DNA from: an uncultured Candidatus Rokubacteria bacterium
Lineage (GTDB): Bacteria; Methylomirabilota; Methylomirabilia; Rokubacteriales; CSP1-6
DNA length: 64,000 bases
Reading direction: 5' to 3'
Assembly (NCBI GenBank): GCA_963747235.1
Contig: CAVVEU010000024.1
Coordinates: 64,001-128,000, forward strand
A program made the position numbers and the translations under genes. The stretch's first letter is position 1, and each line of letters starts with the position of its first letter. This document shows positions 20,357-55,033 of this stretch, in pieces. The notes below the pieces were generated by a model, which was given only the letters and a program-made list of their open reading frames with translations, was not told the DNA's origin and searched no databases.

Positions 20357-20426
20357 GCAAGCCATGATAGCAGCCGGTAGGCGGCTCGCGGCCGAACGGT
20401 CGACGCGGCAGAACCGTCGGGGCCGA

Positions 20427-20470
20427 AGCTTTGCGAGGTGAGCCGAAGGCGAGCCGAGCGCATTCAAAAA
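20427..20470 (+). repeat. GA-hairpin dispersed repeat, copy 1 (intergenic)
   Basis: GCGAGGTGAGCCGAAGGCGAGCCGAGC; matches copies at 33555, 52790 and 53974. Confidence 0.8.
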
Positions 20471-20502
20471 GAGAAGCCCCCGTTTATGCTAGACAGGGAC
20501 CC

Positions 20503-32035: not shown

Positions 32036-32865
32036 AGGGGCCGCTCCTGCTGGCCCTGGGCCTGGTCGCGGTCACCGCGGTGGTGGGCTCCGTCACCGCG
32101 GCCGCGCAGGGCATGATCGCCCCGCTCTTCGCCGCGCACCGGGGCGGCGCGCTGCTCTGGGCGGAGAACAGCCTGCTCGCGTTTCGCAACGCGCTGGCCC
32201 TGGGCGCCGACTTCCTCGAGCTCGACGTGCACCTGACGCGCGACGGCGAGGTGGTGGTGATCCACGACGCCACGCTCGAGCGCACCACCACCGGCACCGG
32301 CCCGGTGCGCGCGCGCACGCTCGCGGAGCTGCGGGCGGTGCGGCTCAAGGACCGCGACGGGGCGGTGCTCGAGGAGAGCGTGCCGACGCTGGACCAGGTG
32401 GTGGCGCTCGCGGTGCTGGGCAGGCGGCAGATGCTGCTCGAGATCAAGACCGACGAGCGGCGCCAGCGCTACCCGGGGATCGAGGAGAAGGTGTTCGCGG
32501 TGCTCGATCGCCACGGCTTCACCCCCTTCACGGTGGTGATGGCCTTCGAGAGCCGCGACGTGGCGCCGCGTGCGCCAGGTTCGCCCCGACGCCCGGGTGG
32601 CGGCGCTCTACTCGGCGCGCATGCTGCCTCCGCCCGCTACCCGTCGGGGCAGCTCGAGACGCTGCGCCAGGCCGGCGTGAGCTTCGTCGGGCTCGACCAG
32701 GCGCTCGTCACCGCCGAGGTGGCGAAGCAGGCGCGGCTGGCCGGCCTCACCCTCGGGGTGTGGACGGTGAACGAGCGCGCGGCCATCGCGCGCTTCATCG
32801 ACCAGGGCGTCGGCGTGGTCATCACCGATCGCCCGGATCTGGCCCAGGAGCTGCTCGGCCGGTGA
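32032..32865 (+). CDS. Glycerophosphodiester phosphodiesterase (GDPD) with signal peptide; probable compensating indels ~32550-32640
   Basis: [37 protein letters not shown]. Confidence 0.88.
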
Positions 32866-34404
32866 GCGCGCGGCGCTTCGTCCTGGCGCTGGACCAGGGG
32901 ACGACCGGGTCCACCGCGCTCGTGATCGATCCGGACGGCGGCGTGCGGGCGCGCGGGTACGCGGAGCTGCCCCAGCATTACCCGCAGCCGGGCTGGGTGG
33001 AGCACGATCCGGGGCAGATCTGGGCCACCACCGTGCAGGCCCTCGGCCAGGCGATGGCCTCGGCCGGGATCACGCGGGCGGAGATCGCGGCGGTGGGCAT
33101 CACCAACCAGCGGGAGACGACCATCCTCTGGGAGCGCGCGTCCGGGCGCCCGGTGGGCAACGCCATCGTGTGGCAGTGCCGGCGCACCGCCGCGCTCTGC
33201 GACCGGCTGAAGGCCGACGGGGCCGAGCCCGAGATCCGGCGGAAGACCGGGCTCGTGGTGGACGCGTACTTCTCGGGCACGAAGATTCGCTGGATGCTCG
33301 ACCATGATCCGGCGCTGCGCCCGCGCGCGGAGCGCGGCGAGCTGTGCTTCGGGACGGTGGACTCGTGGCTGCTCTGGCAGCTCACCGGCGGCGCGGTGCA
33401 CGCGACCGATCCGTCGAATGCCTCGCGCACGCTCTGCTTCGACATCCATCGCCGCGCGTGGGACGAAGGGCTCTGCCGGATTCTCGGCGTGCCGATGGCG
33501 CTGCTGCCGGACGGTGAAGCCGTCAGCGGGCGTGTTCGGAGAAACCGCAGCTTGGCGAGGCGCAGCCGTAGGCGAGCCGAGCGGATACAGAGAGTCGTCG
33601 GGGCTGCCGGGCGGCATTCCGGTGGCGGGGATCGCGGGGGACCAGCAGGCCGCGCTGTTCGGCCAGGCCTGCGTCGAGCCCGGCATGGCCAAGAACACCT
33701 ACGGCACCGGCTGCTTCGCGCTCCTGAACACGGGCGAGCGCGCCGTCGCCTCCACTGAGGGCCTGCTCACCACGGTGGCGTGGACGGTGGAGGGGAGCAC
33801 CGCCTACGCGCTCGAGGGCGCGGTGTTCATCGCGGGCGCGGCCGTCCAGTGGCTGCGCGACGGCCTCGGCATCATCCGACAGGCCGCGGAGACGCAGGCG
33901 CTGGCCGAGTCCGTCCCGGACACGGGCGGCGTCTATCTCGTGCCCGCCTTCGTGGGGCTGGGCGCGCCCTACTGGGATCCCTATGCGCGGGGCACGCTGG
34001 TCGGCATCACGCGCGGCACCGGCCGCGCCCACCTGGCCCGCGCGGCGCTCGAGGCCATCGCCTACCAGAGCCGCGACGTGCTCGACACCATGAAGCGCGA
34101 GTCGGGCGTGCCGCTCACGTCGCTTCGAGTCGATGGCGGCGCATCGGCGAACGATTTTCTCTGCCAGTTCCAGGCCGACATGCTGGGAGTGGAGGTGCTG
34201 CGCCCGTCGGTGACGGAGACCACCGGGCTCGGCGCCGCCTACCTGGCCGGCGTGGGCGTGGGGCTCTGGAAGAGCCGGGAGCTGGCCACGCGCTGGAAGC
34301 TCGAACGGAAGTTCACCCCGACGATGTCCGACGGCGCGCGCGAGGCGGCCTACGGCGGCTGGCGCCGCGCGGTCGAGCGGTCGCTGCGGTGGGCGCAGCC
34401 GTAA
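32862..34404 (+). CDS. glpK: Glycerol kinase (frameshift ~33510; contains in-frame repeat insertion)
   Basis: [51 protein letters not shown]. Confidence 0.95.
33549..33594 (+). repeat. GA-hairpin dispersed repeat, copy 2 (in frame inside glpK)
   Basis: GCGAGGCGCAGCCGTAGGCGAGCCGAGC, encoding RGAAVGEPS. Confidence 0.8.
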
Positions 34405-52160: not shown

Positions 52161-52845
52161 GTGATCGCCATCGTCGACTACGGCCGCGGCAATCTCGGCA
52201 GCGTGGAGAAGGCCTTCGCGCGGATCGGCATGCCCGCCGTCGTCACCCAGGACCCGAAGGTGGTGGACGACGCGGAAGCGGTGGTGCTGCCCGGCGACGG
52301 CGCCTTTCACGACGCGATGGGTAGCCTCCAGGCGCTGGGGCTGATCGCGCCGCTCCGGGCGTGCTTCGAGAGCGCGCGGCCGTTCTTCGGGATCTGCCTC
52401 GGCTACCAGCTCCTCTTCTCGGAGAGCGAGGAGTTCGGCCAGGGCAAGGGCCTCGACGTCATCCCGGGCGCGGTGCGGCGCTTCCCGGCCGGGTCTCAAG
52501 GTGCCGCACATGGGCTGGAACCAGGTCGCGCACCGGGGCGACCTGCCGCTCTTCGACGGGATCCCGAGCGGGGCGCACTTCTACTTCGTGCACTCCTACT
52601 ATCCGGAGACCGCCGACACTTCGCTCCGGGTCGCGACCTGCACCTACGGGCTCACGTTCCCGGCGGCCGTCTCGCGCGGCGCCCTCCACGCCACCCAGTT
52701 CCACCCCGAGAAGAGCCAGCGCTGGGGCATCCGCATGCTCGAGAACTTCGCGGCCATCGTGCGCGATCGCGCTGAGAGGATCGAGATGGCCGAGGTGCAG
52801 CCGAAGGCGAGCCGAGGAGACCATGAACCGCCGAGCGGATGGTAG
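52161..52845 (+). CDS. hisH: IGP synthase glutaminase subunit (frameshift ~52490; repeat-derived C-terminal tail)
   Basis: DYGRGNL, GICLG, PHMGWN, YFVHSY, QFHPEKS. Confidence 0.94.
52786..52824 (+). repeat. GA-hairpin dispersed repeat, copy 3 (3' end of hisH)
   Basis: ATGG-CCGAGGTGCAGCCGAAGGCGAGCCGAGG-AGA-CCAT. Confidence 0.8.
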
Positions 52846-53578: not shown

Positions 53579-54378
<800 letters not shown>

Positions 54379-54382
<4 letters not shown>

Positions 54383-55033
54383 GCCCGACCGACGATCTCA
54401 AGTGGGACGCGCAGGGGCTGATCCCGGCGGTGGTCCAGGACACCGAGACCGGCCAGCTCCTCATGGTCGCCTGGATGAGCCCCGCGTCGCTCGAGGCGAC
54501 GCGGCGCACGGGCCTCACCCATTTCTGGTCGCGCTCGCGCAACGCGCTCTGGCGCAAGGGCGAGACGTCGGGGCACACCCAGCACGTGGACGGCCTCTTT
54601 GCTGATTGCGACCGGGACACGCTGCTGGTCCAGGTGCACCAGGACGGCGTGGCGTGCCACACCGGGGCGCGGAGCTGCTTCTTCACGCGCCTCGACGGCG
54701 GGGAGGCCGGGCCCGCGTCGGGCGGCGGCGGGCCCCGCGATGCTGGAAGTCCTCGAGCGGGTGCTCGAGTCGCGGAAGGTGGCGCCGCCCCCCGGCTCCT
54801 ACGTGGCGACGCTGTTCGAGAAGGGGCAGCCCCAGATCTGCCGGAAGATCGGCGAGGAGGCCGCGGAGGTGATGACCGCGGCCCTGGGCGGCGAAGGGGA
54901 CGAGCGCGTGGTCTCCGAGGTCGCGGACCTGTGGTTTCACACCATGGTCCTGCTGACCGCCCGCGGCATCCCCCTCCGCCGCGTCTTCCAGGAGCTCGCC
55001 CGCCGACACAAGCCGGACAAGAAGGACACGTGA
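54379..55033 (+). CDS. hisIE: Phosphoribosyl-AMP cyclohydrolase / phosphoribosyl-ATP pyrophosphatase (probably a fused HisIE, frameshift ~54735)
   Basis: WSRSR..KGETSG, DCDRD, ACHTG..SCF; then [19 protein letters not shown]. Confidence 0.9.

Follow-up and report, generated by a model that had tools for sequence, protein, structure and literature searches.

A probable MIRU-like short interspersed repeat family of Rokubacteria, found at operon junctions and in frame within glycerol kinase

The glycerol kinase gene (glpK) of an uncultured Candidatus Rokubacteria bacterium contains a GC-rich repeat of about 42 nt that is translated in frame and recurs at three other places in the surrounding DNA. 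What kind of element can enter an enzyme gene in this way, how widely is it distributed, and how does it spread? We studied these questions in a 64,000-nt stretch of contig CAVVEU010000024.1 (assembly GCA_963747235.1, positions 64,001 to 128,000; hereafter the window), in which a preliminary description had noticed the repeat. The repeat probably represents a lineage-specific, coding-tolerant family of short interspersed repeats of Methylomirabilota (Rokubacteria) that is arranged like the mycobacterial interspersed repetitive units (MIRU). The unit has been copied into many chromosomal sites and has expanded locally into head-to-tail arrays; we infer its mobility solely from this distribution. 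Methylomirabilota are abundant, largely uncultured bacteria of soil and groundwater, and gene calling, binning and protein annotation are all affected by a repeat that occurs about once per 16 kb of the window. It gives rise to read-through tails, open reading frames (ORFs) of very small size (mini-ORFs), possible gene fusions and length-variable enzymes.

A pattern search found repeat cores at positions 20439, 33562, 52797 and 53981, all on the + strand. Three of them are exact, and the first has two mismatches, its bulged C being missing. A loose search with a 20-mer allowing three mismatches was only marginally above chance: it found 4 matches where 1.5 were expected, and 2 of 100 shuffled sequences also reached 4. 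A covariance model, built from 143 copies and run on the window with filters off, returned four matches of 49.6 to 64.5 bits (E values from 1e-16 to 3e-12), and the fifth-best match had 16.2 bits. Because of this gap the count is settled: the 64 kb contain exactly four copies, on one strand only, at the places where the preliminary description had put them. The unit itself is slightly longer than had been described, extending from about -9 to +35 around the core.

In glpK the unit occupies positions 33550 to 33591 of the + strand (about 42 nt, ends ±3 nt; 64.5 bits), with the core hairpin at about 33555 to 33582. It is translated in frame directly after the residues FGET and before the next conserved segment. 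An insert of about 14 residues had been proposed, and the comparison with orthologues gave the same value: the net gain is 14 residues or 42 nt (518 versus 504 aa, and 513 versus 499 aa). The insert is indeed in frame; the gene around it (32862 to 34404, + strand) is assembled in two frames with a break at about 33511, some 40 nt upstream of the repeat, which the preliminary description had missed. Its start was placed by alignment to P0001, an intact 513-aa GlpK that is 97% identical to the GlpK of the window. The two ORFs on the + strand, 32760-33758 and 33304-34404, carry the Pfam domains FGGY_N and FGGY_C, respectively. The frame is shifted by an extra base (ccggacGgtgaag, 33509 to 33513, + strand) at the point where intact homologues have LLP[TE]. 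This base is probably an assembly indel that has no connection with the repeat.

The GlpK loop was compared among the 120 best relatives (77-97% identity, several named Methylomirabilota or Rokubacteria), 111 of which had a parsable loop. The check for orthologues with an empty site was positive, as 81 of the 111 loops have 15-17 residues and lack the insert. A full insert, with a loop of 30 residues, was found in 11 of 111; four loops have 27 residues and 15 have 18-25, and several of these last intermediates retain remnants such as AAGRGAA. The insert aligns to residues 228-236 of E. coli GlpK. According to the section cited here (PMC7765489 section 10), Gly234 and Arg236 of the E. coli enzyme are on a surface loop that binds fructose 1,6-bisphosphate (FBP). 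In an AlphaFold model of P0001 (80-sequence alignment, mean predicted local distance difference test (pLDDT) score 82.9), the insert is predicted as coil between strands 222-227 and 253-259, with pLDDT below 50 at residues 233-241. The GlpK copy is an old 42-nt insertion into a tolerant loop, the one that binds FBP in E. coli GlpK, and is fixed in one sub-clade and eroded or trimmed in others.

The repeat is widely dispersed, as had been proposed. One scan of a species-representative genome collection with the exact 21-nt core GGYGCAGCCGNNGGCGAGCCGAG found at least 118 loci with at least 147 matches; all locus counts given here are lower bounds. Grouped by the similarity of their flanks, the loci form at least 75 site clusters. 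The GC content of all loci listed is 63-77%, and that of the window is 70.5%. Among the 118 loci listed, 72 come from bins labelled Rokubacteria, Rokuibacteriota or Methylomirabilota. The other 46 carry other labels, including one Acidoferrum bin (13 loci), one Limnocylindria bin (8), Nitrosotalea (5), Dormiibacterota (5), Verrucomicrobiia (5), Deferrimicrobiaceae (3) and Nitrosocosmicus (2), Nitrosotalea and Nitrosocosmicus being archaea. Many of these 46 loci lie in contexts orthologous and nearly identical to those of Rokubacteria loci, and a GC content of 63-77% is foreign to Nitrosotalea. The shared contexts and the GC content suggest that the other-phylum labels are likely mis-binned or mislabelled contigs rather than cross-phylum spread. 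No Rfam 15 family reached its gathering score anywhere in the window, and blastn with the 52-nt unit as query found nothing in the plasmid and phage collections searched. A literature search, by core sequence and for repeats in this phylum, yielded no paper that contains the core or describes such a repeat. The family is apparently undescribed.

The consensus reads [GC][GA][GGY][G(C)A][GCC]-GAA-[GGC][GA][GCC][GA][GC], followed by an A-rich tail. Conservation around the core begins at about -9, weakly from -15, and ends at +35, where the A-rich run fades. Among 140 unique copies, G is found at -9 in 133, and GGCGA at -5..-1 and CG[GA]ATA at +23..+28 are each present at 90% or more, except that G/A at +25 and T at +27 reach 80% and A at +28 75%. 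The loop is mostly GAA (A at +10 in 106 and A at +11 in 134 of 140), and the 5' flank bears a weak motif G-c-a-G-T-n-G. An nhmmer search of the 118 loci and the window gave 175 matches, of which 25 are non-exact, with single changes mostly in the bulge or the loop and often at the bulged C. We inferred the boundaries of the unit from the conservation profile, the 42-nt array period of locus L049 and nested copies. Together these put the unit at about 42 nt; if its flanks are counted in, it reaches up to about 52 nt. The 42-nt period of L049 equals the net gain in GlpK, and the smallest genomic array period is 39 nt (L111). The core is open in all three sense frames, and the minimal unit length is a multiple of three.

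These results bear on the trivial explanation that no real element exists: the copies would then be alike by chance in GC-rich DNA, would encode a peptide motif that arose by convergence, or would be artefacts of the assembly or of technique. The marginal 20-mer test and the error-prone assembly of the window (see below) could be read in this way, and two of the loci, L055 and L095, lack the flanking consensus and look like chance matches to the core. We nevertheless hold this explanation to be extremely improbable. The window copies score 50-65 bits against 16 for the best background match, and the flanks are conserved beyond the search pattern. Copies lie in intergenic DNA and in three reading frames, so they are not a peptide motif. 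In addition, the same inserts are present in proteins from independent sources (JGI, ENA, NCBI), on short-read-style and long contigs alike.

GlpK is not the only enzyme with an insert. The frame RGAAEGEPSEY is common to leucyl-tRNA synthetase (LeuRS; L005 and L063), where the insert lies between the catalytic and the anticodon-binding domains, to an unnamed protein (L074) and to HisF (L090), the cyclase subunit of imidazole glycerol phosphate synthase. We compared the 120 best HisF matches (P0121-P0240), 105 of which were parsable, with a query that itself bears the insert. All 105 have an insert between AIDA and WQVYTHGG, made of 1 (19 sequences), 2 (68), 3 (16) or 4 (2) units of AVAGRGAAEGEP in 12-residue steps, so that HisF lengths form one series of 269/281/293/305 aa and a parallel one of 273/285/297/309 aa. 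Because the query carried the insert, the lack of an empty HisF among the top matches says little. At the site where P0124 has 43 residues, solved HisF structures have 3. The AIDA strand directly before the units presumably holds a catalytic Asp. Extra-loop tolerance beside a catalytic strand, as in HisF, or in a regulatory loop, as in GlpK, offers a natural experiment, and the variation in copy number could serve as a strain marker for these organisms.

A more disordered case is P0241, a partial thiamine pyrophosphate (TPP)-binding protein of Rokuibacteriota. It contains a scrambled double array in which two repeat reading frames are mixed (GRGEPKASRADMTIEPSEYNSAGRGAAE...), followed by the apparent start of another polypeptide, and it is a possible repeat-mediated fusion of two cistrons. 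The L091 array was translated into 52 residues and searched against longer proteins; there were 9 candidates and a single weak match (E = 4.2), the word index being ill suited to such a query; this weak match does bear scrambled repeat peptides. The proposal that the repeat seeds GAAxGEPS peptides into the proteome is borne out for GlpK, HisF, LeuRS, the L074 protein and the TPP enzyme, but internal coding insertions make up only about 5 of the at least 75 site clusters. Every clear coding copy is sense-oriented, and, read from the consensus, the antisense strand is as free of stop codons as the sense strand.

We then considered the fold of the repeat. The consensus can form a 29-nt hairpin with 8 standard pairs. 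From the foot upwards, its stems have 2, 3 and 3 bp; a tandem G·A separates the first two, a G(C)A/GA internal loop the last two, and a GAA triloop caps the whole. This structure had been drawn before, and it agrees with the invariant and variable positions, the variation being concentrated in the loop and the bulged C. When RNA parameters are used, three of the four window copies take this structure as that of lowest energy, but it is not clearly more stable than in shuffled sequences (z = -2.2, -1.4 and -0.15). The glpK copy gave another helix, of the 5' flank (-9..-3) with GCCGAGC (+17..+23; z = -1.1). This alternative is not preferred, because it needs T and Y at -7/-6 and only about 40-50% of the copies have them. 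With the same parameters the + strand reaches -12 to -15 kcal/mol versus -8.5 to -11.4 for the - strand, whose z values are -0.09 or higher. With DNA parameters no window copy beats its shuffles (z of +0.19 or higher), and the stability once ascribed to the single-stranded DNA hairpin is not borne out by the available DNA energy model. GAA loops of the d(GCGAAGC) type and sheared tandem G·A pairs stabilise DNA hairpins, and the DNA folding model takes account of neither sheared G·A pairs nor GNA loops.

In the alignment of 143 copies 99.6% of the cells pair, but six of the eight pairs are fixed by the exact-core search. One stem position opposite G toggles between C and T (85 C-G, 58 U-G), and another pair shows 5 U-G. 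The outer pair has switched from G-C to C-G in three copies of one site lineage, which is the only compensatory switch found. Covariation is almost nil, since there is hardly any variation in the stems; the result carries no information rather than a negative one, and it neither supports nor refutes the fold. We regard the G·A hairpin as plausible and strand-specific rather than demonstrated. Two better known structures do not fit: there is no U run behind the hairpin as in a terminator, and, as read from the sequence, no 3-nt bulge before the G·A pairs as in a K-turn.

Most copies lie outside proteins, at the gene junctions of operons. The coding strand of the 300-nt flanks was called heuristically from the phase of GC at third codon positions (GC3). 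Among the 118 loci listed, 80 are (+,+), 12 (+,-), 5 (-,-) and 4 (-,+), and 17 are partly uncalled. Counted by site cluster (75 listed), 47 are sense versus 3 antisense at co-directional junctions, 9 are convergent, 2 divergent and 14 partly uncalled. Two copies on the same contig, L001 and L002, are 3.3 kb apart and in opposite orientations, each sense to its own genes; this single pair suggests that orientation goes with transcription and not with the direction of replication. The stop codon of the upstream gene lies at -11 (TAG, 9 loci), -10 (TGA, 9) or -8 (7), together 25 of the 101 placeable loci, and in a further dozen loci the reading frame crosses the core and stops in the A-rich tail. 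Downstream starts follow 5 to about 70 nt after the core, some of them within the tail (GGATAAATAAATG, GGATTAATG). In the commonest subfamily (5' GCAGTGGC, tail GGATACAAGAAAG) the stop is usually further upstream and an ordinary Shine-Dalgarno sequence lies behind. Pfam searches of 150 flanking ORFs from 69 loci identified the junctions thiS-thiG, nuoB-C-D, nuoJ-K, hisG-hisD, hisB-hisH, mraZ-mraW, ruvC-ruvA, sdhB-sucC, leuC-leuD and pyrR-pyrB, and junctions of ABC transporter genes. At least 32 site clusters are multi-species, with the same core at orthologous junctions.

Such a placement would also be expected of a host-functional operon RNA, in which the sense hairpin and A-rich tail would, for example, direct processing or stability of the transcript, offer ribosomes a stand-by site or couple the genes, and the protein copies would be by-products. 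The 47 to 3 excess of sense sites within operons, the fixed place beside the upstream stop, with the downstream start following after a few to about 70 nt, and the same core at orthologous junctions of the multi-species clusters are all in line with it. So are the reproduction of the fold by RNA parameters and the C/U toggle opposite G, which is wobble-compatible in the sense strand only. A purely structural RNA signal should however drift by compensatory changes, yet the sequence is nearly invariant, and no Rfam family reached the gathering threshold in the window. Furthermore, the glpK copies decay like neutral sequence, the copy number is free to vary among relatives (1-5 units), and many orthologous junctions as well as the 81 empty GlpK loops do without the repeat. 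Part of the conservation at orthologous sites stems from the way the loci were ascertained, with the exact core as query. We therefore consider a host function of this kind unlikely, though it comes next in probability after the MIRU-like family.

Five loci (L036, L044, L048, L056 and L086) show how a copy can sit between two genes that are translated in succession. In each of them the ATG of a mini-ORF overlaps the upstream TGA (ATGA or TGATG), and the mini-ORF crosses all units in the frame GE[AV]QPKASRA and ends at a TGA that overlaps the downstream start (TTGA, GTGA or ATGA). L044, at the sdhB-sucC junction, contains three 60-nt units. This is the arrangement of MIRU (Supply et al. 1997), which in the sections cited here (PMC3184786 section 9; PMC12548453 section 11) are units of 40-100 bp in operons, with ORFs that overlap the adjacent genes and coupling at -4 spacing. 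As far as those sections describe MIRU, the likeness extends to the unit length (about 42-52 nt, within the 40-100 bp range), to the occurrence as dispersed copies and as head-to-tail arrays of variable copy number, to the position between operon genes and in their orientation, and to the internal ORF with 4-nt overlaps at both ends, here in a subset only. Methylomirabilota belong to a different phylum, and the two families are likened by arrangement as described and not by sequence. The Methylomirabilota unit, unlike MIRU, centres on a G·A-mismatched hairpin and is also found in frame inside enzymes, where it behaves like a variable number tandem repeat (VNTR; HisF, 1-4 units). A second, independent case of the MIRU arrangement makes the coupling-preserving survival of small mobile repeats testable beyond mycobacteria.

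How could a MIRU-like repeat be tolerated at so many sites? With all its sense frames open and a minimal length divisible by three, it would be tolerated in three ways. It may form a C-terminal tail of the upstream gene; it may form a mini-ORF that overlaps the upstream stop and the downstream start, so that translational coupling would be kept as in MIRU; or, rarely, it may form an extra disordered loop within an enzyme, the glpK copy being of this kind. Because the core is near-invariant while flanks and loop vary, we suggest that a sequence-specific trans-acting factor is involved, and the core may be the recognition site of a copying protein. Copying or retention may be tied to the transcribed sense strand, and the repeat would be mainly selfish or neutral and not required by its host.

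The arrays indicate how the unit expands locally. Head-to-tail arrays have periods of 36-80 nt and 2-5 copies, and in all 30 multi-copy sources the copies are direct. The 36-nt period, or 12 residues, is that of HisF, and the longer periods to 80 nt include a second hairpin module (see below) or flanking sequence. In the hisG-hisD junction of L016 (986-1104) HisG crosses the repeat and stops in AAATGA, which overlaps the start of hisD. Each 67-nt unit of this array takes in eight codons from the beginning of hisD, which indicates that the array grew by junction duplication. A CRISPR array was rejected, because the "spacers" are themselves repeated within and between loci, with periods of 36-80 nt.

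Several points weigh against the MIRU-like family as we have drawn it. We saw no enzyme, no target duplication and no DNA-level empty site, and some arrays, such as that of L016, are clearly local duplications rather than re-insertions. The same core at orthologous sites of different species could reflect selection for a host function. The both-ends-coupled mini-ORF was found in 5 loci only, mostly in the subfamily with the second hairpin module. The loci were picked by the exact core, so that the invariance of six of the eight pairs is built in; the folding energies are unexceptional; and the gene strands come from the GC3-phase heuristic rather than from a gene finder.

The preliminary description had suggested a different route, in which the repeat is moved by an HUH tyrosine transposase. 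In its explicit form this would make the repeat an element akin to repetitive extragenic palindromic (REP) sequences, with a single-stranded DNA hairpin recognised by an enzyme of the REP-associated tyrosine transposase (RAYT) or IS200-IS605 type, cut at its foot and pasted near a short target. The hairpin is strand-asymmetric with RNA parameters, all copies within each locus have one orientation, neither glpK nor the nested copies show a target duplication, and the weak 5' motif G-c-a-G-T-n-G is a possible target or guide. There are also recurrent breaks in the loop. L002 and L012 contain half copies 60-130 nt upstream of an exact copy; these break off after GCAGCCG and continue with CGAGCCGAGCGG (CGAGCC), with 4 nt of the loop missing and a full copy between the halves. 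The breakpoints are identical in both loci, which hints at cutting or slippage at the hairpin.

Other features expected of this route are missing. In the portion of PMC3733652 cited here, REP sequences and their paired forms (REPINs) associated with RAYTs bear, at one end of the palindrome, a tetranucleotide GTAG (or CGTC) that is conserved. In our alignment GTAG stands at the tag position (-12..-9) in 8 of 143 copies, with GTGG in 37 and GTTG in 14. When the 12 alignment columns of the 5' flank are taken as a whole, 21 of 143 copies have GTAG somewhere in them. None of the 119 sources (118 loci and the window) has copies on both strands, and there are no inverted pairs of the REPIN or bacterial interspersed mosaic element (BIME) kind. 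Pfam found transposase families in 0 of 42 window ORFs and 0 of the 150 ORFs of 69 loci, together 0 of 192 nearby ORFs, which is weak evidence as RAYTs are single-copy. Folding with DNA parameters was no better than shuffles, though with a model that gives no bonuses for G·A pairs or triloops. Finally, the 94% sense bias agrees better with transcription than with the direction of replication, as does the pair L001 and L002, whose orientation flips along with that of the genes over 3.3 kb. An HUH mechanism is thus not supported by these counts, and we rate it as rather improbable, slightly below a host RNA function.

The sense bias may be taken one step further. The repeat might be spread or retained via the transcribed strand, its G·A-zippered hairpin being exposed in mRNA or in displaced non-template DNA, where an enzyme would copy it beside stop codons and into other hairpin loops; Methylomirabilota might then have co-opted it as a portable stop-hairpin-restart module by which operon genes stay coupled in translation. 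We put this forward as a speculation that is as improbable as the HUH route. If true, it would make the repeat a transcription-oriented mobile element of an undescribed kind, rather than a relative of REP sequences or of miniature inverted-repeat transposable elements (MITEs).

The MIRU-like family can be compared with other short repeats. It is like the Rickettsia palindromic elements (RPEs; Ogata et al. 2000, cited in PMC3184786 section 15), as that section presents them, in being non-autonomous and in frame in unrelated housekeeping proteins without destroying them, and in that orthologues without the insert exist. RPEs are Watson-Crick palindromes, however, and here the coding copies are the minority. 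Their length is about 100-150 bp, which is longer than this repeat. To our knowledge, RPEs are not mainly at operon junctions and have not been reported as tandem arrays. With REP and REPIN sequences, in the portions of PMC3733652, PMC3337134 and PMC2817692 cited here, the family shares its many copies, mostly non-coding, often just downstream of genes and confined to a lineage, and its possible hairpin would likewise be short, GC-rich and imperfect. REP palindromes measure 20-40 bp and lie outside genes; here a 29-nt hairpin with G·A mismatches may form, and several copies are translated. The family differs in having no GTAG or CGTC tag and no inverted pairs or BIME alternation, only direct arrays, in being strongly sense-biased with some copies translated, and in having no RAYT among the ORFs near its copies. 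The absence of a terminal inverted repeat, that of the unit being central, and of a duplication flanking glpK or the nested copies (ends known to ±3 nt) led us to reject a MITE. The DNA uptake sequences of Pasteurellaceae and Neisseria (USS/DUS, uptake signal and DNA uptake sequences) are also over-represented short motifs that occur in coding regions in preferred frames. USS accumulate by point mutation and in both orientations. The repeat described here, in contrast, is gained as a whole 42-nt block (GlpK 504 to 518 aa) and forms arrays; an uptake sequence was rejected, since this is block insertion and not point changes.

The other three copies of the window lie among housekeeping genes (nuoL/M, ugp, glpK, atp, mfd, rho, prfA, hisDBHAF and cysS by Pfam). 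The copy without the bulged C (20422 to 20472, + strand; 51.4 bits) is intergenic, in the spacer between a divergent M23 peptidase gene on the - strand and a small membrane ORF followed by nuoL on the + strand. A second copy (52779 to 52830, + strand; 52.0 bits) is at the 3' end of hisH, at the hisH-hisA junction; in this variant the outer pair is C-G and the tail reads GAGGAGACC. At the orthologous site, L011 has a 3-unit array with period 69. The third (53963 to 54014, + strand; 49.6 bits) is within hisF, between AIDA and WQVYTHGG. The hisF gene (53579 to 54385, + strand; ends approximate, from the alignment of P0124 to solved HisF) is interrupted as assembled: within its copy a TAA stands in frame at 54005-54007, and there is a gap of 1 nt when the copy is aligned with the orthologous L090 sequence, which reads straight across the insert with no interruption.

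Genes are split between frames at nuoL (about 21800), a ugp permease gene (about 31000), glpK (33511), hisD (about 50600), hisH (about 52500) and hisF (54005). These at least six split housekeeping genes look like assembly indel errors rather than biology. The window may be an error-prone assembly or a decaying genome; because other genes in the window are also frameshifted, assembly error is the economical reading for the hisF defects. Frame-based statements on the window carry the caveat of these frameshifts. The GC skew of the window (+0.017) is too weak for a replichore assignment.

A second hairpin module, CCCGAGC-GGA-GCGAGGG, is found beside the repeat in the 60-nt arrays of L044, L048, L056, L069, L036, L093 and L118 and is built in the same G·A style. 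In L015 (1048-1290) it takes the form CCCGTGC-GGA-GCACGGG, in which Watson-Crick pairs replace both G·A, and an intermediate form is present in the same array. In L007, L041, L060, L104 and L115 the repeat is nested in a larger structure bounded by G7/C7 inverted repeats, with TGGGGGGGTCTGGGGGA on the left and GCTCCCCCCCAG on the right; this structure may be a second, composite repeat family. The L007 copy is one of the rare antisense copies. In the window, the longest ORF of the M23 peptidase gene would begin with MNALGSPSAHLA (20430-20467, minus strand), which is the antisense translation of the first copy. The real start of this gene probably lies further in, and gene callers may over-extend the gene.

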